A DNA stretch of 64,000 nucleotides from Pedosphaera sp. (GTDB taxonomy: Bacteria; Verrucomicrobiota; Verrucomicrobiia; Limisphaerales; JADLHS01). The position numbers and the translations under genes are program-made. The stretch is taken from NCBI GenBank assembly GCA_009695195.1, contig SIBJ01000001.1, positions 53,581 through 117,580 of the forward strand. Reading direction: 5' to 3'. How positions within the stretch are numbered: the stretch's first letter is position 1; each line of letters starts with the position of its first letter. This document shows positions 3,369-59,418 of this stretch, piece after piece. The notes below the pieces were generated by a model. The model made no database searches. It had not been told where the DNA came from and saw only the letters and a program-made list of their open reading frames with translations.

Positions 3369-4922
3369 ATGAAAACAAACCAGGTCGGACTCTGGCAGAG
3401 GTTGGAACAATTCCAACTGGACTCGGCGGAAGCGGCGCTTCCGTTCTCGGCCCGGCTCGCCCGGGAAAACAACTGGCTGCCCGCCCACGCCCAGCGGGTC
3501 ATCGCCGAATACAAACGCTTCGCCTTCCTCGCGGTGGCGGCGGGACATCCGGTGTCGCCGTCCGGAGACGTGGACCAGGCGTGGCACTTGCACCTGACCT
3601 ACTCGCACAATTACTGGAAGGTCTTCTGCCCGGGAATCCTCGGGCAACCGCTCCACCACCAGCCGACGAAAGGCGGGAGCGATGAGCGCGAGAAGTTCGG
3701 CGATTGGTATCGGCAGACGCTGGAAAGTTATCGCGAACACTTCGGCGAAGAACCGCCGCGCGACATCTGGCCCACGCCGGAAGTCCACGCCGCGGAGAAG
3801 CACAACTTCGTCCGCGTGGACCGTGAGCGGAGCTGGGTGATCCCGAAGCCGCGTTTCTGGTCTCTCTCTCCCCGCGAGGAACGAGTGGGGAGAGAGATGG
3901 AGAGAGGGGCCGTTCAAAAAACGCGCCTCCTCTCCCCGGCCCTCTCCTCCGCGCCGCGCGGAGGAGAGGGAGTCTTAATCGTGAAGCTGTTCGCTGGCGT
4001 TGGTTTGTCTGTGCTCGGTGTGCTTTGCACCGGTGCGATGCTGGCGCAGGGCGCGAATCCGTTCGACTGGCGCGGGCCGGACTTCCTCAAGTTTTATCTC
4101 GCGCTCGCCGGGGTGTGCTTCGGCTGCGCGGTGTGGCTGCGCTGGAAATTGCGCCAGCCCGTCGAGTTGCCGGCGGATGATTTGTCCGATCTCGATCCGT
4201 ACGCGATGGCTTACCTCAATGGCGGGCGCGTGCTGGCGGTGAACGCTGCCGTCGCCAACCTGGCGAATCAAGGATTGCTCCACGTGGACACAAAGAAACG
4301 GAAGCTTACGAGCCTCGGGACGATTTCGCCGGACCATCACCCGTTGGAACGCGCGGTCCACTCGGTCGCGAGAAAATCCGGCGGTGAAACGATCAAGGAG
4401 TTGCGCGCAGGCGTTCGATTGGCGGTGGAACGTATCTCGGAGGATTTGAAAGCGCGCGGACTGGTCGTGGCCGACGCGCAGGCGCGGAAAGCGATCTGGT
4501 TCCCGCTGCTCATCGCCGCGCTCGCACCGGCGCTCGGCGGAATAAATATTCTCATCGGTGTGAGTCGCGGAAAGCCGGTCACGATCCTCGTGGTGCTGTG
4601 CATCGTGTCGGCCATCGTGATGCTGGTCGGTTTCGCGCGACGCCCGCTGCGTAGCCGATGGGGCGGCGCGATGTTGGATCAATTGAAAGAACGCCACGCG
4701 ACGTTGCGGCGGCCGGGAATCAACACCGCCGGTCTCGGGCCGGTTGAGTTCGCCACGGCCATCGGGTTGTTTGGTCTGACGGCGCTGGCCGGAACTGAAT
4801 TGGAGGACTTGCGCAAGACGCTCACGCCGCCGGGTGGCGGCGGGAGTTGCGGAAGTTCCTGCGGGAGCGGCTGTGGCGGCGGTTGCGGCGGCGGGTGTGG
4901 GGGCTGCGGCGGCGGGGATTGA
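3369..4922 (+). CDS. TIGR04222-type membrane protein with an N-terminal GRDP-like domain and a Gly/Cys-rich C-terminal tail
   Basis: The N-terminus YKRFAFLAVAAGHPVSPSGDVDQAWHLHLTYSHNYW...DIWP matches my recollection of the conserved N-domain of TIGR04222 proteins. Several TM helices follow. The tail is GGGGSCGSSCGSGCGGGCGGGCGGCGGGD. A GAGGAA motif lies 4 nt upstream of the ATG. Confidence 0.7.
   Translation: MKTNQVGLWQRLEQFQLDSAEAALPFSARLARENNWLPAHAQRVIAEYKRFAFLAVAAGHPVSPSGDVDQAWHLHLTYSHNYWKVFCPGILGQPLHHQPTKGGSDEREKFGDWYRQTLESYREHFGEEPPRDIWPTPEVHAAEKHNFVRVDRERSWVIPKPRFWSLSPREERVGREMERGAVQKTRLLSPALSSAPRGGEGVLIVKLFAGVGLSVLGVLCTGAMLAQGANPFDWRGPDFLKFYLALAGVCFGCAVWLRWKLRQPVELPADDLSDLDPYAMAYLNGGRVLAVNAAVANLANQGLLHVDTKKRKLTSLGTISPDHHPLERAVHSVARKSGGETIKELRAGVRLAVERISEDLKARGLVVADAQARKAIWFPLLIAALAPALGGINILIGVSRGKPVTILVVLCIVSAIVMLVGFARRPLRSRWGGAMLDQLKERHATLRRPGINTAGLGPVEFATAIGLFGLTALAGTELEDLRKTLTPPGGGGSCGSSCGSGCGGGCGGGCGGCGGGD
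3861..3972. repeat. Intragenic hairpin repeats, family M-like (CTCTCCCC / GGGGAGAG arms)
   Basis: Two inverted repeats lie inside the CDS: TCTCTCTCCCC-N13-GGGGAGAGAGA (3861-3897) and CTCCCCGGCCCTCTCCTCCGCG-CCGCGCGGAGGAGAGGGAG (3927-3972). They share the CCCCGGCCCTCTCC core with the elements at 46811-47018 and 59298-59339. Confidence 0.55.
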
Positions 4923-14767: not shown

Positions 14768-14899
14768 AAAGCACCAAGCACCAAGCACCAAGCTCCAGAG
14801 AAATTCCAAGCTCCAAATTCCAAGCGGGGCCGGGCGCGCGGAGTTTGGAGCTTGGGTTTTGGAGCTTCTCTGGAGCTTGGTGCTTGGTGCTTGGAGCTT
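14768..14899. repeat. Long hairpin repeat, family C (AAGCACCAAGCTCCAGAGAAATTCCAAGCTCCAAATTCCAAG arms)
   Basis: The arms at 14768-14822 and 14844-14899 are reverse complements around a GC-rich loop, GGGGCCGGGCGCGCGG. A related copy lies at 31757-31892. Confidence 0.7.
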
Positions 14900-17251: not shown

Positions 17252-17346
17252 CCGAACATCCAACACTCAACATCCAGATCGAACATCCAATTTGAACGGG
17301 CCGCGCGCCGGGTTCTTTGGATGTTGGTTGTTCGATGTTGGTTGTT
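17252..17346. repeat. Hairpin repeat, family D (GAACATCCAACACTCAACATCC arms)
   Basis: CCGAACATCCAACACTCAACATCCAGATCGAACATCCAA pairs with TTTGGATGTTGGTTGTTCGATGTTGGTTG around the GC-rich loop CGGGCCGCGCGCCGG. It lies between convergent lptB and the DUF554 gene. Confidence 0.6.
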
Positions 17347-28791: not shown

Positions 28792-28873
28792 GCGTGTTGC
28801 GTGTTACGTGTTGCGTCAAGCAGCGAGGACGCCAACCGCAATACTTGACGCAACACGCAATACACAACACGCC
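28792..28873. repeat. Hairpin repeat, family E (CGTGTTGCGTGTT..GTGTTGCGTCAAG arms)
   Basis: GCGTGTTGCGTGTTACGTGTTGCGTCAAG ... CTTGACGCAACACGCAATACACAACACGC. A second copy lies at 34045-34116. Confidence 0.65.
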
Positions 28874-31756: not shown

Positions 31757-31892
31757 GAAAGCTCCAAATTCCAACCTCCAAACTCCAGAGAAACTTCAAA
31801 TTCCAATTTCCAAAAACAGCGCGCTGGACGTGGCTCTTGGAATTTGGTGCTTGGAATTTCTCTGGAGCTTGGAGGTTGGTGCTTGGAACTTC
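31757..31892. repeat. Long hairpin repeat, family C
   Basis: GAAAGCTCCAAATTCCAACCTCCAAACTCCAGAGAAACTTCAAATTCCAA ... TTGGAATTTGGTGCTTGGAATTTCTCTGGAGCTTGGAGGTTGGTGCTTGGAAC. It shares the CTCCAGAGAAA / TTTCTCTGGAG core with 14768-14899. Confidence 0.7.
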
Positions 31893-34044: not shown

Positions 34045-34116
34045 ACGTGTTCCGTGTTCCGTGTTGCGTCAAGTGGCAAGGGACGTCGCTGCTACTTGAC
34101 GCAACACGCAACACGC
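34045..34116. repeat. Hairpin repeat, family E
   Basis: ACGTGTTCCGTGTTCCGTGTTGCGTCAAGT ... ACTTGACGCAACACGCAACACGC, between the DUF3106-like gene and trpB. Confidence 0.65.
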
Positions 34117-34173
34117 AAAGCCCGCCCACTTTCCCACTTTCTCCCCCGCCCGCTTTCGATTAGGGTCGAAAGC

Positions 34174-44029: not shown

Positions 44030-44105
44030 GACACGGATTTCACGGATTTCCACGGATTCAACAATTCTGGAAATCAATCCGTGAAAATTCGTGAAATCCG
44101 TGTCT
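44030..44105. repeat. Hairpin repeat, family F (ACACGGATTTCACGGATTTCCACGGATT arms)
   Basis: AGACACGGATTTCACGGATTTCCACGGATT ... AATCCGTGAAAATTCGTGAAATCCGTGTCT. It fills the nuoB-nuoC spacer. Confidence 0.65.
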
Positions 44106-44694: not shown

Positions 44695-44713
44695 TTTCAT
44701 GGCTAAAGAATTT

Positions 44714-44801
44714 AACGCAGAGACGCAGAGGCCGCAGAGAGACGCGAAGGAATTCTTTGTGTTTTCTCTGCGAGCCTCTGCGGCCTCTGCGTCTCTGCGT
44801 T
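44714..44801. repeat. Hairpin repeat, family G (AACGCAGAGACGCAGAGGCCGCAGAGA arms)
   Basis: AACGCAGAGACGCAGAGGCCGCAGAGAGACGCG ... CTCTGCGAGCCTCTGCGGCCTCTGCGTCTCTGCGTT. A second copy lies at 54057-54153. It fills the nuoC-nuoD spacer. Confidence 0.7.
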
Positions 44802-44822
44802 TATTCGGCAACAATTAAGGCA

Positions 44823-46118
44823 ATGCCCGAAGTTCAAGAAATCGAAATCCGCGATTCCGCCGCGCAGTCCGCAGCGGCAGCTCGAGCTTTGCCCCGTCCG
44901 AGCGACGAAGATTTGCAGGACATGCAGGGCGAGAAGATGGTCCTCAACATGGGGCCGTCGCACCCGTCCACGCATGGCGTGTTGCGCATCATTCTTGAGC
45001 TGGACGGCGAGATCATCACCAAGGCGATTCCAGACATCGGCTATCTGCATCGCGGCGACGAGAAGATTGCCGAGAACATGACCTACACCCAGTTCATCCC
45101 TTACACGGATCGGCTGGATTATCTCGCGCCGATGGCGAACAACGTCGCCTACGCGCTCGCGGTCGAAAAACTGCTCGGCATCCACGACAAACTCCCGCCG
45201 CGTTGCCAATATCTCCGCGTGATTTGCGCGGAACTGGCGCGTATCTCGTCGCACTTGCTCGGCGTCGGCTGTTTCGCGATGGATGTGGGCGCGATGACGG
45301 TTTTCCTGCTCACGTTCACCGAGCGCGAAAAGATTTACAACCTCTGCGAATCCCTCACTGGAGCGCGATTCACGACGAGTTACACGCGCATCGGTGGCGT
45401 TTCGCGCGACACGCCGCCCGGTTGGTGCGACGCGGTGCGCAAGTTTCTCAACGAAGTCGTCGTCAACATCGCCGAGGTCGAGACGCTGCTCACGCGCAAC
45501 AAAATCTGGGTGGACCGCACGCGCGACGTGGGCGTGATCTCGAAGGAAGAGGCGATTGATTTCGGTCTGAGTGGTCCGAATTTGCGCGGCAGCGGCGTGG
45601 ATTACGATCTCCGCAAAGCGCAGCCGTATCTTTGTTACAAAGATTTGCAATTCGACGTGCCGCTCGGTTCGGTTGGCGATTGCTACGACCGCTACCTCGT
45701 GCGCATGGAGGAAATGCGCCAGAGCGTGCGCCTCGTCCATCAGTGCCTCGATAAACTGCCCGGCGGATTCGAGAACAAATCGAAAGAGCCGGTGAACGTG
45801 GCCGATGGCAAAATCGTGTTGCCGCCGAAGAACAAGGTCATGTCGAGCATGGAGGAATTGATTCATCAATTCATGCTCGTGACGCAGGGCATGAACTGTC
45901 CGCCCGGCGAAGTTTATTTTGGCCACGAAAATCCGAAGGGCGAACTCGGCTTTTACATCAACAGTCGCGGCGGTGGCACGCCGTATCGGATGAAGATCCG
46001 CAGCCCCAGCTTCGTGAACCTGAGCATCCTGTCGCACCTGTTGCCCGGCCACATGATGAGCGACACCGTGGCAATCTTGGGATCGTTCGACTTTGTGATG
46101 GGAGAATGTGACCGATGA
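44823..46118 (+). CDS. nuoD: NADH-quinone oxidoreductase subunit D
   Basis: LNMGPSHPSTHGVLR...GYLHRG.EK...; start placed at ATG 44823. The track ORF start at 44424 lies inside nuoC. Confidence 0.92.
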   Translation: MPEVQEIEIRDSAAQSAAAARALPRPSDEDLQDMQGEKMVLNMGPSHPSTHGVLRIILELDGEIITKAIPDIGYLHRGDEKIAENMTYTQFIPYTDRLDYLAPMANNVAYALAVEKLLGIHDKLPPRCQYLRVICAELARISSHLLGVGCFAMDVGAMTVFLLTFTEREKIYNLCESLTGARFTTSYTRIGGVSRDTPPGWCDAVRKFLNEVVVNIAEVETLLTRNKIWVDRTRDVGVISKEEAIDFGLSGPNLRGSGVDYDLRKAQPYLCYKDLQFDVPLGSVGDCYDRYLVRMEEMRQSVRLVHQCLDKLPGGFENKSKEPVNVADGKIVLPPKNKVMSSMEELIHQFMLVTQGMNCPPGEVYFGHENPKGELGFYINSRGGGTPYRMKIRSPSFVNLSILSHLLPGHMMSDTVAILGSFDFVMGECDR

Positions 46119-46600
46119 GCTTTTCCGTTCCCGCAAATCTTGAAGCCGAGATTGACGAGCTGATCACGCATTATCCCGTGAAGCGCAGCGCGTCGCTCAT
46201 GCTTCTGCACGCGTTGCAGGAACATTTCGGCCACATCTCGCCGGAAGCTACGCAATGGGTCGCAAAGAAACTTGGTCTTCAACCCATCAACGTTCACGAA
46301 CTCGTGACGTTCTATCCGATGTTCCGTCAATCTGCGCCGGGCAAACATCAGATCAAAGTCTGTCGCACGCTCAGTTGCGCGCTCGGTGGTTCGCACAAGT
46401 TGCACGAACATTTTTGCACGAAGCTCGGACTCGATCCGCATGCGCATGGTTTGCAAACGACAAAGGATGGAAAGTTCTCGGTCGAGTTCGTCGAGTGCCT
46501 CGCCGGTTGCGGCATGGCGCCAGTGATGATGTGCAACGAGGATTTCTTTGAAGGCGTATCTGAGAAAAAGGCCGATGAAATTCTGGGAGGCTGCAAGTGA
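46115..46600 (+). CDS. nuoE: NADH-quinone oxidoreductase subunit E
   Basis: 2Fe-2S motif VCRTLSCALGG...VECLAGCGMAPVMM; 4-nt overlap with nuoD. Confidence 0.9.
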   Translation: MSFSVPANLEAEIDELITHYPVKRSASLMLLHALQEHFGHISPEATQWVAKKLGLQPINVHELVTFYPMFRQSAPGKHQIKVCRTLSCALGGSHKLHEHFCTKLGLDPHAHGLQTTKDGKFSVEFVECLAGCGMAPVMMCNEDFFEGVSEKKADEILGGCK

Positions 46601-46647
46601 AGATGCTGAATTCGACATTCTTCATTCTGCCTTCTTCATTGGGAGAG

Positions 46648-46721
46648 TGGTTGCCCGACATGGATTTGAACCATGACAAACAGATTCAGAGTCTGCTGTG
46701 CTACCGTTACACCATCGGGCA
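46648..46721 (-). tRNA. tRNA-Gln (anticodon CTG), 74 nt with encoded CCA
   Basis: The reverse complement folds by hand into a cloverleaf: acceptor TGCCCGA/TCGGGCA (7 bp), D-arm GTGT-AACGGTA-GCAC, anticodon stem GCAGA/TCTGT with loop CTCTGAA, T-arm CATGG-TTCAAAT-CCATG, discriminator A, then CCA. Confidence 0.85.
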
Positions 46722-46810
46722 AACCGACGTGTCCGCTAAACTAGAGAATTTCGCAGGCCAGTCAAGCCGACAGACCGGTTCAACCGCGAACGACTTGAAT
46801 GGTTTTGACG

Positions 46811-47018
46811 CTCGCCCTCACCCCGGCCCTCTCCCCCGAGAAGAGGGAGAAGCTGCGCGCGGCTTACGAAAATTTGGCCGTCACAATTGCAGTCGCCATC
46901 TCTCTGCCGTTCGCTCCAAGGCGCTCACAACAAACTGCGATGTCCGTATCGCCACCAACCGGCGAACGATTCTCCCTCTCCTGGGGGAGAGGGCCGGGGT
47001 GAGGGTGGTCGTTCCCAC
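46811..47018. repeat. Inverted pair of family M elements (CTCACCCCGGCCCTCTCCCC / GGGGAGAGGGCCGGGGTGAG) flanking about 115 bp
   Basis: The left copy (46811-46852) and right copy (46968-47018) are mutual reverse complements, giving a MITE-like architecture in the nuoE-nuoF spacer next to the tRNA. Confidence 0.65.
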
Positions 47019-47056
47019 AAACATTTCACGCATCACGCATCACGCACCACGTTAAC

Positions 47057-48499
47057 ATGCCGCAAGAGTTCAAACTCATCCTCAAGCACCTCGATAACCC
47101 GGGTTACACGCCGGACATCGAATGCTATTTGCGACACGGCGGCTACGACGCGCTCAAAAAAGCACTCGCCATCCAGCCCAAGGATTTGCCCGACGGCAAG
47201 AAAGCATCGCCACAGGAACAGATTCGCGACGACGTGAAGCTTTCCGGCCTGCGCGGTCGCGGCGGCGCGGGTTTTTCGTGCGGACTCAAGTGGAGTTTCG
47301 TGGATCGCCGCAGCGGCAAACCGATTTATCTCATCTGCAACGCCGACGAATCCGAGCCGGGCACGTTCAAAGATCGCCAGATCATCCACAAAGACCCGCA
47401 TCAACTCATCGAGGGCATGATTGTCTCGTGCTTCGCGAACGACGTGAAGCTCGCCTACATCTACATCCGTGGCGAAATGCCCAAGGGCGCGAAGCTGCTG
47501 AACGCGGCGTTGAAGGAAGCTCGCGCGAAAAATTTCCTCGGCAAAAACATTTTGGGCAGCGGTTACGATTTGGAGATTCACGTTCATCGCGGCGCGGGTG
47601 CTTACATCTGCGGCGAGGAAACCGGCCTCATCGAATCGCTCGAAGGCAAGCGACCGTATCCGCGCATCAAGCCGCCGTATTTTCCCGCGGTGCTCGGGCT
47701 TTACATGTGCCCGACCATCGTCAACAACGTCGAGACGCTCTGCAACGTGAAGCACATCGTCACGATGGGCGGCCCGGAATTCGCGAAGCTCGGCACGCCG
47801 AACAACACCGGCACACGCATCGTGAGTTTGAGCGGCCAGGTGAAACGCCCCGGCTACTACGAGATCGAAGTCGGTAAAGCCACCATCGGCCAGCTTATCA
47901 ACGATCCCGCGTTCGGCGGCGGCTTGCTTGATGGAAGAAAACTTAAAGCGGTCATCCCCGGCGGTTCATCCTCAAAAGTTTTGAAGGCAGGCGAGAAATT
48001 CAAACTCAAGCGCAAGATCGAAGGCAAAGATGTCGAAGTGGAAACCGACATGCTTGATCTGCCGTATGATTTCGATTCGCTCCAGCAAGCGGGCACAATG
48101 AGCGGTTCGAGCGCGATCATCGTGATTGATGACAGCGTGGACATCGTCGGCGCGCTGGCGAATCTCTCCGAGTTTTACGCCCACGAAAGCTGCGGCCAAT
48201 GCACGCCGTGCCGTGAAGGCTCGCTCTGGATGAGCAAGACGCTGCATCGCCTCACGCACGGTGAAGGCCGCAAACAGGACGCGGATTATCTCGTGAAGAT
48301 CGCCGACAACATTCCCGGCGGTAAGACGATCTGCGCGTTCGGCGAAGCCTGCTCGTGGCCGGTGCAAAGTTTCGTCGCGAAGTTCAAAGATGAATTCGTT
48401 GCCAAAGGCGCAGCCGATGAAGAACGTCGCGCGAAAGAAAAAGTTCAACCAAAAATTGCCACGCCAGCGGAGCGAAAAGAATTAACGACCGCACATTAG
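47057..48499 (+). CDS. nuoF: NADH-quinone oxidoreductase subunit F
   Basis: GLRGRGGAGFS.G.KW (FMN/NADH site) and ESCGQCTPCREG (N3 cluster). Confidence 0.92.
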   Translation: MPQEFKLILKHLDNPGYTPDIECYLRHGGYDALKKALAIQPKDLPDGKKASPQEQIRDDVKLSGLRGRGGAGFSCGLKWSFVDRRSGKPIYLICNADESEPGTFKDRQIIHKDPHQLIEGMIVSCFANDVKLAYIYIRGEMPKGAKLLNAALKEARAKNFLGKNILGSGYDLEIHVHRGAGAYICGEETGLIESLEGKRPYPRIKPPYFPAVLGLYMCPTIVNNVETLCNVKHIVTMGGPEFAKLGTPNNTGTRIVSLSGQVKRPGYYEIEVGKATIGQLINDPAFGGGLLDGRKLKAVIPGGSSSKVLKAGEKFKLKRKIEGKDVEVETDMLDLPYDFDSLQQAGTMSGSSAIIVIDDSVDIVGALANLSEFYAHESCGQCTPCREGSLWMSKTLHRLTHGEGRKQDADYLVKIADNIPGGKTICAFGEACSWPVQSFVAKFKDEFVAKGAADEERRAKEKVQPKIATPAERKELTTAH

Positions 48500-48504
48500 A
48501 AATC

Positions 48505-48810
48505 ATGCCCAAGCTTTACGAATACTTCGGATTGATCGTGTTCTTCTACACCAATGAACATGAGCCGATTCACGTTCATGGCGAGTTTCAGAACGGCCAC
48601 GCCAAGGCGGAATTCTTTTTGAAAGAAGGCAACATCGTGCGGATTGTGTTCTCGAACGTGAACGGCAAACGCCCATTGCCGGGATACAAAATGAAGGATT
48701 TCAGAACCTTGGTGAACGCCAAAGCCGACGATATCGTCCGGCGTTGGATTGAATACTTTGTGTTCAAGAAACACAACAAGCCGGAAATCATTACCCGAAA
48801 AATCAAATGA
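48505..48810 (+). CDS. DUF4160 domain protein
   Basis: MPKLYEYFGLIVFFYTNEHEPIHVHGEFQNGHAKAEF matches my recollection of the DUF4160 N-terminal signature (xHxPxHxH). It starts 5 nt after the nuoF stop. The region looks AT-richer by eye. Confidence 0.8.
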   Translation: MPKLYEYFGLIVFFYTNEHEPIHVHGEFQNGHAKAEFFLKEGNIVRIVFSNVNGKRPLPGYKMKDFRTLVNAKADDIVRRWIEYFVFKKHNKPEIITRKIK

Positions 48811-49199
48811 AAGCGCTGGCGACAAAATATTTGGAAATCGTCCAAGCCGGATACGTTTCCGGCTACAAGATTCGATTGACGTTCAATGATGGGCTGGTTC
48901 GCGTCATGGACTTCGAGCCGTTTTTGCGCAAAGCCCTGAACCCCGACATCACAAAATACCGGCAATTTCGGAACTTCAAAAAATTCCATCTGCACTACGG
49001 TGATTTGATGTGGGGAGATTTCGATATGATTTTTCCGATAACGGATTTGCATCGCGGGAACATTCTCAAAGGGGAGGAAGCCGCTCTGTCTCACTTTGTG
49101 TTGAACGACACTGCCGCTCCGGCCAAACCAATTTCGGACAGGAAAACCAAAATTGTTTCTTACCAAAATGTGAAACGGAAAAAAGTTTTGCATGGCTGA
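48807..49199 (+). CDS. DUF2442 domain protein
   Basis: VSGYKIRLTFNDGLVRVMDFEPFL is the DUF2442-type beta motif. It has an ATGA overlap with the DUF4160 gene, which is the usual pairing, and its stop overlaps the nuoG start by 8 nt. Confidence 0.7.
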   Translation: MKALATKYLEIVQAGYVSGYKIRLTFNDGLVRVMDFEPFLRKALNPDITKYRQFRNFKKFHLHYGDLMWGDFDMIFPITDLHRGNILKGEEAALSHFVLNDTAAPAKPISDRKTKIVSYQNVKRKKVLHG

Positions 49200-54056: not shown

Positions 54057-54153
54057 AAACGCAGAGCCGCAGAGCCGCAGAGAACGCGGAGAAACGCAGA
54101 GGAAATCATTTTCTTTTCTCCGCGAACCTCCGCGGCCTCTGCGTCTCTGCGTT
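54057..54153. repeat. Hairpin repeat, family G
   Basis: AAACGCAGAGCCGCAGAGCCGCAGAGAACGCGGAG ... CTCCGCGAACCTCCGCGGCCTCTGCGTCTCTGCGTTT. It fills the nuoJ-nuoK spacer. Confidence 0.7.
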
Positions 54154-54507: not shown

Positions 54508-54743
54508 CAACGCAAAGGCGCAAAGACGCAAAGACGCGAGGAATCCTTTGCGCGACGGGCGTTGTGCGGCGTAGCGCAGGTTTCCAAACCTGCTGTATCG
54601 CCGATTTCCAAATCGGCGTGGCGTGTTGATTCAGAGCGCGTCGAACTTGCGGGCGGCCTGCGGGTTTGGAAACCCGCGATACAGCAGACTTGGAAGTCCG
54701 CGCTACAGACTTTGCGCCTTTGCGCCTTTGCGCCTTCGCGTTG
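54508..54743. repeat. Nested hairpin repeats: family H outer arms enclosing a family I element (54571-54706)
   Basis: Outer arms are CAACGCAAAGGCGCAAAGACGCAAAGACGCGAGG ... CTTTGCGCCTTTGCGCCTTTGCGCCTTCGCGTTG. The inner element is GTAGCGCAGGTTTCCAAACCTGCTGTATCG ... CGATACAGCAGACTTGGAAGTCCGCGCTAC, with further small hairpins. Confidence 0.65.
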
Positions 54744-56657: not shown

Positions 56658-57772
56658 AATCGCGATCTGCCAACAAAAAAACTTTGAGGAAGGCCCGCCC
56701 GGCCTCGCGGAAGATTGTCGCGACATCGTCGCGACAATTGGCGAAGGCTTCTCCCAAAGCCTTGCTGGTAGATGTGCGAGAACTGATTCTCGCCGCGCGC
56801 GCGGGCGTGGCGCGCACGGTCAATGCCGGCCTGACTCTGCTCTATTGGGAGGTTGGGAATCGCATTCGCGTGGATGTCCTCAAGGAGCGGCGAGCTGGTT
56901 ACGGCGAGGAAATTGTGCAGACGTTGTCGGCACAATTGGAAATCGAGTTCGGGCGCGGGTTCAGCAAGCGCAACCTTTTCAGCATGGTCGCTTTTGCCGA
57001 GGCATTTCCTGACCGGAAGATTGTGCAGACACTGTCTGCACAATTGGGCTGGAGTCATTTCAAGGAAATCATTCCGCAGCAGGATGAATTGAAGCGCGAC
57101 TTCTACGCCGAGATGTGTCGCATGGAGCGATGGAATGTGCGGACGCTGCGGCGGAAAATCGGTGGAATGCTTTTCGAGCGCACCGCCATCTCAAAGAAGC
57201 CCGACCAACTCATCCGCCAGGAACTCAAAGCTCTCCGCGAGGAAGACCAACTCACCCCCGACCTCGTCTTCCGTGATCCTTATGTGCTGGATTTTCTCAA
57301 GCTCAAGGACAGCTACAGCGAAGGCGACCTCGAAGCCGCGATTCTGCGCGAGATCGAGTCGTTCATTCTGGAACTCGGTGAGGGCTTCTGCTTCGTCGCG
57401 CGGCAGAAGCGGATGCAGATTGACGACCGCGATTACCATCTTGACCTGTTGTTCTTCCATCGCAAGCTGCGCCGGCTCGTGGCGATTGATTTGAAGCTGG
57501 ATGATTTCGAGGCCGCCGACAAAGGGCAGATGGAACTCTACCTGAACTGGCTCAAGAAACATGAGCAAAGCCCGGACGAAGCGCCGCCGCTCGGCATCAT
57601 CCTGTGCGCGGGCAAACGGCAGGAACACGTCGAACTGTTGCAAATGGAACGCGACGGCATTCACGTTGCCAGCTACGTGACGAAGTTGATTCCGAAGAAG
57701 CAACTCGAGCGAAAGCTTCACCAGGCTGTGCGCTTGGCAAGGGCCCGGCTGGAGGAAACCAAACTTAGATGA
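56654..57772 (+). CDS. DUF1016/YhcG-family PD-(D/E)xK nuclease-domain protein
   Basis: The N-terminal DUF1016-like helical domain (NAGLTLLYWEVGNRI...YGEEIVQTLSAQL, a duplicated IVQTLSAQL motif, WSHFKEI) and the C-terminal nuclease core (GFCFVARQKRMQIDDRDYHLDLLFFHRKLRRLVAIDLK) match YhcG as I recall it. ATGA overlaps occur at both ends, with nuoL and nuoM. Confidence 0.8.
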   Translation: MKSRSANKKTLRKARPASRKIVATSSRQLAKASPKALLVDVRELILAARAGVARTVNAGLTLLYWEVGNRIRVDVLKERRAGYGEEIVQTLSAQLEIEFGRGFSKRNLFSMVAFAEAFPDRKIVQTLSAQLGWSHFKEIIPQQDELKRDFYAEMCRMERWNVRTLRRKIGGMLFERTAISKKPDQLIRQELKALREEDQLTPDLVFRDPYVLDFLKLKDSYSEGDLEAAILREIESFILELGEGFCFVARQKRMQIDDRDYHLDLLFFHRKLRRLVAIDLKLDDFEAADKGQMELYLNWLKKHEQSPDEAPPLGIILCAGKRQEHVELLQMERDGIHVASYVTKLIPKKQLERKLHQAVRLARARLEETKLR

Positions 57773-59418
57773 CGACGTTGACCTTAATCTTTGCGCTGCC
57801 GTTGCTCGCCGCAATCGCGCTGGCGTTTGTGCCGCGCAACTTTGCCGTCATCATGCGCGCCGTGGCGGTGGGTGTGACCTTCGTCACGATGCTGCTGGCG
57901 GTGCTGATGTTTTGGCGGTTCGACGCGAAGGCGGAAGGCTATCAATTCGTCAGCACCATTCCCGGACTCGGCGCGGAGTCGCTCGGTATCGCCTGCAAGC
58001 TGGGCGTGGACGGTTTGAACGTCGGGCTGGTGTTGATGGGCGCGATCGTTGCGTTCGCGGCGGCGTGTTGCTCGTTTGAGATCAAGTCGCGGGAGAAGGA
58101 GTTTTACATCCTGCTGCTCGTAATGACCGGTGGCATCCTTGGCGCGTTCATGTCGCTCGATCTGTTCTTCTTCTACTTCTTCCACGAACTCGCGCTCGTG
58201 CCGACGTTCATCATGATCGGCGTGTGGGGTCGCGGGGAGAAGAAGAACTACGCCACGTTTCAGATCACGCTTTACCTGAGCATCGGCGCATTGCTGGCGC
58301 TCATCGGCCTCATCGCGCTTTACCTGCAAGTGCCGGCGGACGTTCGCACGTTCGACATCCCGACGCTCACAAAGTTTTTCACGGAACATCCAATGGCGCT
58401 CGCGTCGCAGAAATTTATTTTCCCGATGCTGCTGTTTGGCTTCGGAATTCTCGTTTCGCTCTGGCCGTTTCATTCGTGGGCGGCGCTGGGTTACTGTTCT
58501 GCGCCGAGCGCGACGGCGATGTTGCACGCGGGTGTGCTGAAAAAGTTCGGGCTCTACGGTTTGATCCGCGTGGCGCTGCCGTTCATGCCACAGGCGGCGC
58601 AGACTTGGATGCAAATCCTCGCGTGGCTCGCGCTTGGCAACGTGCTTTACGTCGGCTGGGTCGCGATGAAGCAAAAGAACCTGAACCTGCTCATCGGCAA
58701 TTCCAGCGTGGCGCACATGGGCATGATCTTCCTCGGCATTGCGAGCCTGAACCTCATCGGCGTGACCGGCGCGGTGGTCATCATGATCGCGCACGGCTTC
58801 CTCGCGGCGCTGACGTTCGGCTTGAGCGGCTACATCTACAACCAGACCGGCACGCTCGAAATGAGCGAACTCGGCGGGCTGGCGAAGAAGCTGCGTTTCA
58901 TCGGCGTGGCGTTCGTGATGGCGGCGATGGCGGGTTGCGGCCTGCCGGGCTTCTTGAATTTCGTCGGCGAGGTCACGGTGTTTTTCGGCGCCTGGGCTCA
59001 ACCAAGCTTGCGCGTCGTCACCGTGCTGGCGGTGTGGGGCGCCCTGATCATTGGTGCAGTTTACATGCTGCGCGCGGTGCGGGCGGCCTTGCATGGCCCG
59101 ATGCCGGAGAAGTGGGCAGACGTTTCCGACGCAAACCTGTGGCGCAAACTACCCTATGCCCTTTTGCTTGCGAGTTTGCTGGTGTTTGGTTTCTTCCCGA
59201 AGTTGCTCACGGAAAAAATCAAGCCGGTGACGGAACAGATTGTGAACATGGCGGTGGTGAAGGCGGTTGTTGCCGAGAAGCCGGACGCAAAAAATCCCCT
59301 CACCCCGGCCCTCTCCCCTTCTGAAGGGGAGAGGGAGAATCGTCGGCAGTTGTCTGGCAGTTTCGGTGCTGCTGGTGACTTGATACCCGACAAAAAATTG
59401 CCAATAGCCAAGAAATGA
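57769..59418 (+). CDS. nuoM: NADH-quinone oxidoreductase subunit M (with a repeat-derived C-terminal extension)
   Basis: Antiporter-like TM core (FFHELALVPTFIMIGVWG, HAGVLKKFGLYG). The last 50 or so codons (KNPLTPALSPSEGERENRRQ...) run through the family M repeat. Confidence 0.9.
   Translation: MTTLTLIFALPLLAAIALAFVPRNFAVIMRAVAVGVTFVTMLLAVLMFWRFDAKAEGYQFVSTIPGLGAESLGIACKLGVDGLNVGLVLMGAIVAFAAACCSFEIKSREKEFYILLLVMTGGILGAFMSLDLFFFYFFHELALVPTFIMIGVWGRGEKKNYATFQITLYLSIGALLALIGLIALYLQVPADVRTFDIPTLTKFFTEHPMALASQKFIFPMLLFGFGILVSLWPFHSWAALGYCSAPSATAMLHAGVLKKFGLYGLIRVALPFMPQAAQTWMQILAWLALGNVLYVGWVAMKQKNLNLLIGNSSVAHMGMIFLGIASLNLIGVTGAVVIMIAHGFLAALTFGLSGYIYNQTGTLEMSELGGLAKKLRFIGVAFVMAAMAGCGLPGFLNFVGEVTVFFGAWAQPSLRVVTVLAVWGALIIGAVYMLRAVRAALHGPMPEKWADVSDANLWRKLPYALLLASLLVFGFFPKLLTEKIKPVTEQIVNMAVVKAVVAEKPDAKNPLTPALSPSEGERENRRQLSGSFGAAGDLIPDKKLPIAKK
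59298..59339. repeat. Family M hairpin inside the 3' end of nuoM
   Basis: CCTCACCCCGGCCCTCTCCCC-TTCTGAA-GGGGAGAGGGAGAA shares its core with 46811-47018 and 3927-3972. Confidence 0.6.

Follow-up and report, generated by a model that had tools for sequence, protein, structure and literature searches.

The window analysed here, a 64,000-nt (64-kb) stretch of Pedosphaera sp. DNA, contains a run of plus-strand nuo genes (respiratory complex I), between two of which, nuoE and nuoF, a tRNA gene is encoded on the opposite strand. Pfam searches confirm nuoB, nuoC, nuoD, nuoE, nuoF and nuoG around this tRNA. nuoE (46115–46600, plus strand; 161 aa; PF01257, E = 3.7 × 10−44) ends in a TGA codon at 46598–46600, and nuoF (47057–48499, plus strand; 480 aa; PF01512 and PF10589) follows after a spacer that measures 456 bp, exactly as had been proposed in the original prediction for this DNA. 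The accompanying claim, that this spacer greatly exceeds the other nuo junctions in length, is not borne out, as the nuoF–nuoG junction is longer still at 692 bp. Within the spacer, the tRNA gene (46648–46721, minus strand; 74 nt) has its 3′ end 47 nt past the nuoE stop and its 5′ end 335 nt from the nuoF ATG, such that it is placed head-on to nuo, in agreement with what was first reported. The spacer is also spanned on the plus strand by an open reading frame (ORF) of 152 codons, hereafter the bridge ORF, which runs from the nuoE stop to the nuoF start across the tRNA gene.

The tRNA gene and its charging

ARAGORN returns a single tRNA for the whole 64-kb window, a tRNA-Gln with a CTG anticodon at 46648–46721 on the minus strand. 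The same sequence matches the Rfam tRNA model (RF00005) over its full length (model positions 1–71 of 71) with 66 bits (gathering score 29; E = 4 × 10−12), and no Rfam match other than this tRNA occurs in the window. Both programs thus bear out the minus-strand cloverleaf with a CTG anticodon, a U1–A72 first pair and an encoded CCA that had been described from the letters alone; the CCA lies at 46650–46648, next to discriminator A73. An alignment of 74 sequences displays compensatory changes in the acceptor stem (CCCGA/TCGGG and CCGAA/TTCGG), the anticodon stem (GCAGA/TCTGT, AGTGA/TCACT and GCTGC/GCAGT) and the T stem (CATGG/CCATG and CTAGG/CCTAG), with the U1–A72 pair being kept in all aligned copies. 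Judged by its Rfam score, its ARAGORN call and these compensatory stem changes, the tRNA gene is genuine and under selection, and it has the look of an expressed gene.

The earlier reading had also noted gatC in the same window, which is confirmed by a Pfam match at 1168–1455 on the minus strand (PF02686, E = 9 × 10−24). Together, gatC and the U1–A72 pair fit the indirect charging of this tRNA by transamidation, a suggestion that draws on the established biology of GatCAB and that we retain. A further candidate feature, a plus-strand 'mirror tRNA' acting as a very stable barrier or processing structure, was rejected, as the plus-strand sequence folds at −19.6 kcal/mol (z = −1.1), which is unremarkable.

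Conservation and age of the antisense tRNA gene

A set of 80 species-level genomes with NuoF sequences 79–94 % identical to that of the window was drawn from GTDB, of which 73 are informative; the other seven loci end <270 nt upstream of nuoF and are hence uninformative. NuoF places the window in the Verrucomicrobiota, within the Limisphaerales or 'subdivision 3' group, and a minus-strand tRNA-Gln(CTG) lies between nuoE and nuoF in 73/73 of the informative species-level Verrucomicrobiota genomes. A second search, keyed on the first 25 nt of the tRNA, was made in metagenomes and gave 80 contigs, in about 59 of which the tRNA is flanked by a divergent nuoF and a convergent nuoE. Amongst these tRNA-keyed contigs is locus L092 (loci are referred to by such numbers throughout), which has a GC content of 47 % and NuoF and NuoE identities of 64 and 46 %, respectively, and which displays the same arrangement; its NuoF is nearer to the Limisphaerales-type clade than to the Verrucomicrobiales (56 %). 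In total, the order nuoA–E, minus-strand tRNA-Gln, nuoF–N is kept in >130 loci of this group of soil Verrucomicrobia. The outgroup sample was confined to the Verrucomicrobiales, and within it nuoE and nuoF of Luteolibacter luteus and Haloferula luteola are 8–10 nt apart with no tRNA between them.

Because it is present in 73/73 genomes and down to 64 % NuoF identity, the tRNA is, on this distribution, an ancient resident and not a recent integration, predating the diversification of the Limisphaerales/subdivision 3 group and a deeper sister branch. Comparison of the nuoE–nuoF spacer amongst relatives, as had been proposed, thus recovers the same antisense tRNA throughout, and the implied picture of a tRNA-targeted integration is not supported, the tRNA itself being old. 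In non-nuo contexts, the 25-mer was found only on contigs of varied GC content (0.39–0.69), with other T stems or a UUG anticodon, and these presumably belong to other taxa.

Several further observations concern the distribution of such tRNA genes. L. luteus harbours a tandem tRNA-Gln(CTG)/tRNA-Gln(TTG) pair (L086 14321–14551; CP051774), encoded on the strand opposite to nuoF and 2.9 kb downstream of it, with an A1–U72 pair and without an encoded CCA. A tRNA-Gln/nuo linkage in the Verrucomicrobiales was considered on this basis and rejected as a probable coincidence, since the pair is not at that position in H. luteola or in another metagenome-assembled genome (MAG). In the Verrucomicrobiales, nuoDEF form a group of their own away from the other nuo genes, with an antisense NAGPA gene just upstream of nuoD. 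One metagenome contig (L113) carries two tandem tRNA-Gln(CTG) genes between nuoE and nuoF (at 1555 and 2483), and two others (L101 and L155) have the first 25 nt of the tRNA with no complete tRNA behind, and may be fragments such as are left at integration sites. The verrucomicrobial locus was also encountered in MAG records labelled as Bifidobacteriaceae, Klebsiella, Pseudomonadales, Methylomirabilota, Acidobacteria-type genera and Proteobacteria (L011, L018, L019, L025, L029, L039, L046, L049, L059, L079 and L080), which probably reflects mis-binning or mislabelling.

Promoter and compact geometry of the locus

On the minus strand upstream of the tRNA, the window has a −35 box TTGACT (46765–46760) separated by a 16-nt spacer from a −10 box TAGTTT (46743–46738), the latter being 16 nt from the mature tRNA 5′ end. 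The pattern TTGACT-N16-TAnnnT is invariant upstream of the tRNA in 74/74 aligned loci, and from this conservation the tRNA is predicted to have its own sigma-70-type promoter (46738–46765). A simple consensus scan of 46000–47300 flagged no promoter, that of the tRNA included (its −10 box matches at only 3/6 positions), and it showed no sigma-70-like site on the plus strand of the window spacer. Scanning the same interval revealed no terminator right behind the tRNA, just two terminator-like sites at chance level. Because no terminator is visible, it would appear that the tRNA transcripts must extend into antisense nuoE.

The commonest layout amongst the relatives is compact, with 0–5 nt between the nuoE stop and the 3′ end of the tRNA, and 46–54 nt between its 5′ end and the nuoF ATG. 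In such loci the −35 box of the tRNA is mostly 3–9 nt from the nuoF ATG, and gaps as tight as these can accommodate neither a separate nuoF promoter nor a tRNA terminator outside of nuoE. No obvious Shine–Dalgarno sequence is seen at the nuoF start. The architecture of the spacer varies even between very close relatives. Whilst the window has gaps of 47 nt on the nuoE side and 335 nt on the nuoF side, the corresponding values are 5 and 53 nt for L082 (NuoF 96 % identical), 721 and 53 nt for L081 (NuoF 98 % identical), and 5 and 605 nt for L105. Both gaps flanking the tRNA are, to judge from these differences, insertion hot spots.

It was originally proposed that the promoter and terminator of the tRNA split nuo into separate transcription units, and one can envisage a division into nuoA–E and nuoF–N, each with its own promoter. 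A strong and conserved head-on tRNA promoter would favour this, as would the fragmented nuo of the Verrucomicrobiales (nuoDEF alone, with an antisense gene upstream of nuoD) and the expanded spacers, which could house a promoter. However, the 46–54 nt between the tRNA and the nuoF ATG in compact loci are filled by the tRNA promoter, and the consensus scan gave no plus-strand sigma-70-like site in the window spacer. The division would also leave unexplained the open frame that crosses the spacer, its phase with the nuoE stop and its own stop beside the nuoF ATG. With compact loci lacking room for a nuoF promoter, and with a coupled bridge ORF being kept, the proposed split is not upheld, and we consider a two-unit nuo unlikely.

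A bridge ORF crosses the antisense tRNA gene

The bridge ORF (46597–47055, plus strand), taken from the list of ORFs and the sequence itself, begins at a GTG that overlaps the nuoE stop (GTGA) and ends in a TAA that is followed by one C and then the nuoF ATG. In between, it crosses the antisense tRNA and both members of an inverted pair of hairpin elements of a family termed M. Read on the plus strand, the tRNA has stops in two frames, with only the third being open (TGG TTG CCC GAC ATG GAT TTG AAC ...), and it is in this third frame that the bridge ORF lies. No Pfam match was obtained for its peptide.

A survey of 119 loci containing nuoE, the tRNA and nuoF (70 from genomes and 49 from metagenomes) reveals an ORF with a start codon that spans the entire tRNA in 114/119. 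Within these 114 loci, the untranslated stretch that separates the bridge stop from the nuoF ATG has a median length of 13 nt, being ≤3 nt in 49 loci and ≤50 nt in 104, although the spacer itself is >50 nt in 93 loci. When only the 54 loci with a nuoF-side spacer of at least 80 nt are considered, the tRNA frame is without an internal stop in 38, compared with 1 and 7 for the other two frames. The bridge stop is 0–2 nt ahead of the nuoF ATG in 32 of these 54 expanded loci, and the ORF overlaps with nuoF in a further four. The open tRNA frame holds over at least eight unrelated types of nuoF-side insert, and the deep branch L092 shows the same bridge pattern. Across loci the bridge ORF ranges in length from 27 to ~230 codons, its sole constant part being that set by the opposite-strand tRNA.

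The nuoE side of the tRNA displays a corresponding phase. For nuoE–tRNA gaps ≤60 nt, 52 loci have the spacing (mod 3 = 2) that places an NTGA start in the tRNA frame, with 8 and 19 loci in the other two phases; in loci with gaps of 46 or 52 nt there is instead a conserved in-frame ATG 42 nt before the tRNA. Variation within the tRNA is accompanied by variation in the gap. The T-stem variant CTAGG adds a TAG to the usual frame and removes a TGA from another, and the CTAGG loci with tight gaps all (5/5) have gaps of 1 or 3 nt, fitting the new frame, versus gaps of 2, 5 or 8 nt in 21/26 tight-gap loci with the usual tRNA (Fisher p = 0.0015). In 4/5 of the CTAGG loci the single gap base together with the TG of the tRNA's TGG forms an ATG or GTG start, with L002 displaying a GTGA overlap.

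Two further ideas concerning the bridge ORF were considered and set aside. A functional bridge peptide is not adopted as the main explanation, as substitutions are about evenly spread over codon positions; and a relay in which two small ORFs would be coupled in succession, tested for compact loci, is seen in just 11 loci and is not general. As a separate observation, L105 (contig Ga0154020_10390202) is a near relative of the window, with the first 35 NuoF residues identical and NuoE 92 % identical, in which the 605-nt spacer has a stop-free tRNA frame, versus 11 and 7 stops in the other frames. This spacer seems to encode, joined to the segment derived from the tRNA, a genuine domain of a secreted or lipoprotein-like kind.

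Cargo genes between nuoE and the tRNA

About 20 loci carry additional genes, either one or two, on the nuoE side of the tRNA, always co-oriented with nuo and often starting on the nuoE stop (among them L012, L017, L025, L029, L031, L036, L037, L045, L046, L057, L061, L062, L065, L067, L075, L079 and L081). The cargo includes genes for PIN-domain proteins (L061 and L081), for an N6/N4 DNA methylase accompanied by a partner gene (L079), for JAB/DUF4329-like and DUF6998 proteins, and for a protein of ~200 aa that recurs between loci and has no Pfam match. Where cargo is present, the bridge ORF usually begins on the stop of the cargo gene, giving a chain of start/stop overlaps, and it seems that selfish 'addiction' modules ride the nuo transcript. 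Because cargo genes start on the nuoE stop codon, plus-strand mRNA would continue beyond nuoE, which is a further point against a nuo that is divided at the tRNA.

Proposed read-through and translational coupling of nuo

As a plus-strand ORF coupled to both the nuoE stop and the nuoF start is kept across the tRNA, we infer that nuo is read through. In our assessment the operon is probably transcribed across the nested head-on tRNA gene and translationally coupled over it, and is not split. This reading of transcription, of translation and of the reason for the latter builds on the tRNA gene and its conservation, its promoter, the geometry of the locus and the ORF statistics, i.e. on sequence comparison. 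RNA polymerase would pass from nuoE over the opposite-strand tRNA gene, making nuo one operon, and ribosomes finishing nuoE would restart at the overlapping NTGA start and translate the bridge ORF, which uses the sole stop-free antisense-tRNA frame and has its stop either at the nuoF start or no more than ~50 nt away from it. A spacer that is translated in this way would avoid Rho-type polarity, a role for Rho that is drawn from general bacterial biology. The ribosomes would then be handed on to nuoF, which appears to have neither its own promoter nor an obvious Shine–Dalgarno sequence, such that re-initiation would be aided. Meanwhile, the tRNA would be made from its own promoter in the opposite direction, with its transcripts entering antisense nuoE. 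In the window, the nuoF-side insert of 250 nt with its two inverted M hairpins has been kept open in the bridge frame.

A number of points weigh against this reading. Dinucleotide shuffles of the window spacer are stop-free in the tRNA frame in 15 % of cases, and the corresponding fraction ranges from 0.0005 to 0.72 across loci. A stop-free frame is thus not rare in these stop-poor spacers, and the case rests on an ensemble of phylogenetically related loci, whose counts are not independent of one another. The ORF of most compact loci ends 12–49 nt short of nuoF, and 10/114 loci leave >50 nt untranslated. A plus-strand promoter inside the body of the tRNA gene is possible, with that sequence being tRNA-constrained. 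Lastly, substitutions between orthologous spacers are about even over codon positions, and non-coding DNA would look alike; this pattern fits selection on translation and not on the peptide, and would be equally expected of untranslated DNA.

From the same points one could argue that the arrangement is a frozen accident, with the bridge ORF being a by-product of composition and nuoF being expressed from read-through RNA whose spacer is not translated. The spacers are indeed stop-poor (5–70 % of dinucleotide shuffles being stop-free in the tRNA frame), the substitutions have no codon-position bias and the peptide has no Pfam match. Composition does not readily account, however, for a tRNA frame that is stop-free in 38/54 expanded loci when control frames give 1 and 7, for a terminal stop 0–2 nt before the ATG in 32/54, for gap phases of 52:8:19, for a gap length that co-varies with the tRNA variant, or for the same pattern in the deep branch L092. 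We hold such an accident to be doubtful.

Antisense or head-on interference is possible, and could be imagined to serve as a valve. Here, a growth-rate-controlled tRNA-Gln promoter would, through collisions or transcript pairing upon firing, set how much nuo transcription reaches nuoF–N, and the bridge ORF would be a counter-measure that keeps the read-through RNA alive. We regard this as quite unlikely, although if it were true, the supply of complex I subunits would be tied to translational demand.

The inverted M pair and the 250-nt unit

The nuoF side of the window spacer consists largely of a conserved unit of ~250 nt (46767–47020, plus strand), defined by its inverted repeats and orthologous copies, and comprising a left flank, M1 (46808–46852), a core (46853–46967), an inverted M2 (46968–47012) and a right flank. 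The arms 46808–46837 and 46983–47012 are 30 nt in length and 90 % complementary, and a second pair of 18 nt (89 %) extends the M elements to ~46851 and ~46970. Together, the arms are predicted to pair into a stem of ~44 bp and enclose ~115–118 nt, which confirms the original description of two inverted family M elements bracketing ~115 bp. Each M element is a GC-rich hairpin of ~45 nt. The 20-mer CCTCACCCCGGCCCTCTCCC is present in four copies in the window and the M hairpin core in three, with 0.01 expected in each case. Further M hairpins lie at 3929 and 59297 of the window, and L061 has another inverted doublet whose core is different. A short imperfect palindrome that is repeated and that forms inverted doublets here and in L061, M is by these features a hairpin family resembling repetitive extragenic palindromic (REP) sequences and REP doublets forming hairpins (REPINs). 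One of its copies, at 59297–59342, lies in frame in the C-terminal tail of NuoM (57769–59418), ~75 nt before the overlapping nuoN start (59415).

L001 (84 % identity), L056 and L052 (80 %) possess the whole unit, its core included, at this same position, and L038 has a more diverged copy there; all four have NuoF sequences 84–94 % identical to that of the window. The unit is missing from the closest relatives, L081, L082 and L002. In ~800 kb of sequence (88 loci plus the window, and not a complete genome of this species), the 115-nt core has no match outside of this locus, the only matches being at nuoE–nuoF of L001, L056 and L052. No direct repeat suggestive of a target-site duplication is evident around 46808 and 47012, as assessed by eye only.

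The pair had been called like a miniature inverted-repeat transposable element (MITE), and in one respect this stands, as terminal inverted repeats are present; in another it does not, as the 115-nt core recurs in other species at this locus only and is not dispersed. The unit is hence not classed as a MITE, dispersed copies that share its core not being found in the sampled DNA. On a stronger version of the idea, the pair would be a MITE that was brought beside the tRNA by recent transposition and provides nuoF with a promoter or a regulatory hairpin. In keeping with this are the terminal inverted repeats of 30–44 nt with 90 % complementarity, M hairpins that are multi-copy in the window with another inverted pair in L061, and the lack of the unit in L081, L082 and L002. 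Set against it are the flanks and core at the same site in L001, L056, L052 and L038, the single location of the core in the ~800 kb searched, the want of a target-site duplication by eye, and a unit that is free of stops in the bridge frame. Recent transposition of this kind is, in our view, very unlikely.

Tandem arrays and other nuo junctions

The 47-nt gap between nuoE and the tRNA contains a tandem array with a unit of ~7 nt (CATTCTT × 3.6; 46616–46640), as identified by TRF. In relatives this gap is often 41–52 nt (mostly 46–47 nt), corresponding to about four copies of a 7–8-nt unit (window 46601–46647, L003, L004, L006, L007, L013, L014, L022, L034, L038, L041, L044, L047, L052, L054, L056 and L060). 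The unit differs by species (AATCGTA, CTTCAGCC, ACTCCGC and TTCTTCA) and the position and length are constant, such that the array seems to evolve in concert whilst its length and location remain fixed. A second array, of the heptamer TCACGCA × 3.7 (47026–47051; TRF), is found directly upstream of the nuoF start, and similar (nnnCACG)n arrays precede nuoF in many relatives. Both the nuoE–tRNA and the pre-nuoF arrays are stop-free in the bridge frame.

Other junctions of the operon are also occupied. The nuoF–nuoG junction, which is low in GC, carries a toxin–antitoxin-like pair of genes, DUF4160 (48505–48810) and DUF2442 (48807–49199), with a GC content of 0.45–0.47 versus ~0.57 nearby; these are chained to nuoF and nuoG by one 5-nt gap and two start/stop overlaps. 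Because the content of this junction differs amongst the window, L081 (another small gene, Unstab_antitox) and L082–84 (none), it represents a second insertion hot spot. The nuoB–nuoC (~97 nt) and nuoC–nuoD (~128 nt) junctions both have repeat hairpins. At the latter, a 39-codon ORF (44699–44818) runs over an inverted pair of 9-nt tandem arrays, its start being 4 nt past the nuoC stop and its end 4 nt short of the nuoD ATG (44823). The nuoB–nuoC junction is bridged only in part, up to a stop codon 24 nt ahead of the nuoC start. The logic of keeping intervening RNA translated thus seems to apply at other junctions too (nuoC–nuoD, nuoF–nuoG and the NuoM tail/nuoN).

Many intergenic regions of the window possess two tandem arrays with a 7–9-nt unit in inverted orientation, which would form long hairpins built of repeats. 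At nuoB–nuoC, for example, CACGGATTTC × 2.8 is followed by AATCCGTGAA × 2.8. Such sites are found at 14769–14899, 17255–17346, 28792–28872, 31762–31891, 34046–34118, 44032–44102, 44715–44800, 54060–54152 and 54510–54740. We know of no named family for paired inverted arrays of 7–9-nt units.

Implications and comparison with known systems

Operons are usually regarded as uninterrupted, and backwards genes inside of them have been recognised only recently, the cases so far being mostly protein genes of Staphylococcus. In the present locus, a highly transcribed tRNA gene would have been kept head-on within a highly conserved respiratory operon over very long evolutionary time, with the cell apparently coping by leaving the intervening RNA translated in the one open frame of the tRNA, whatever inserts. 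If true, the locus would represent a case, natural and replicated many times over, of selection for translation itself and not for a protein, and of a coding frame that crosses an active opposite-strand tRNA gene; it would also provide a handy system for the study of head-on transcription conflicts, Rho polarity and translational coupling. The locus is also of note for annotation, since gene callers miss bridge ORFs or label them as hypothetical proteins. A non-exhaustive literature search returned no description of a tRNA gene inside nuo, or of a coding frame kept across an antisense tRNA gene.

Several known systems share individual features with this locus. The nuoG RNA motif (Rfam RF01748), a small hairpin, is a conserved non-coding element of enterobacterial nuo operons. 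It is comparable to the present tRNA in being such an element inside nuo, but differs in being a small hairpin and not an opposite-strand gene, and the window has no Rfam match besides the tRNA. Rickettsia palindromic elements insert in frame in coding genes, and in a similar manner M hairpins are found inside ORFs that remain unbroken (the NuoM tail at 59297–59342 and the bridge ORF). They belong, however, to another sequence family and another phylum, and the host ORF in our case may exist only to be translated. With REP sequences and bacterial interspersed mosaic elements (BIMEs), REPINs and MITEs, M shares a hairpin of ~45 nt that is GC-rich, repeated in the genome, located between operon genes and arranged in inverted doublets. 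In contrast to these, the arm-to-arm spacer varies by locus, and the window doublet with its core is orthologous across species and not dispersed.

Coupling through overlapping start and stop codons (ATGA or TGATG) has its likeness in the nuoE/bridge GTGA, the bridge/nuoF TAA-C-ATG, and the DUF4160/DUF2442 and DUF2442/nuoG junctions, with the difference that the coupled 'gene' between nuoE and nuoF is a filler ORF that varies from 27 to ~230 codons. Closest in gene layout are the noncontiguous operons (Saenz-Lahoya et al. 2019; S. aureus atlas PMC11034616), since a gene of opposite orientation lies within co-oriented, functionally linked nuo genes. In functional terms, noncontiguous operons are characterised by mutual repression, exerted through RNase III or transcriptional interference; nuo is likened to them by its layout, and the overlap of transcripts would follow from the read-through proposed above. 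Their interrupter is a protein gene (the term 'tRNA' occurs 0 times in the text of the atlas, PMC11034616), whereas that of nuo is a tRNA gene. Moreover, the arrangement described here is conserved over an order-level clade, and the overlapped stretch is apparently translated as a coupling ORF.

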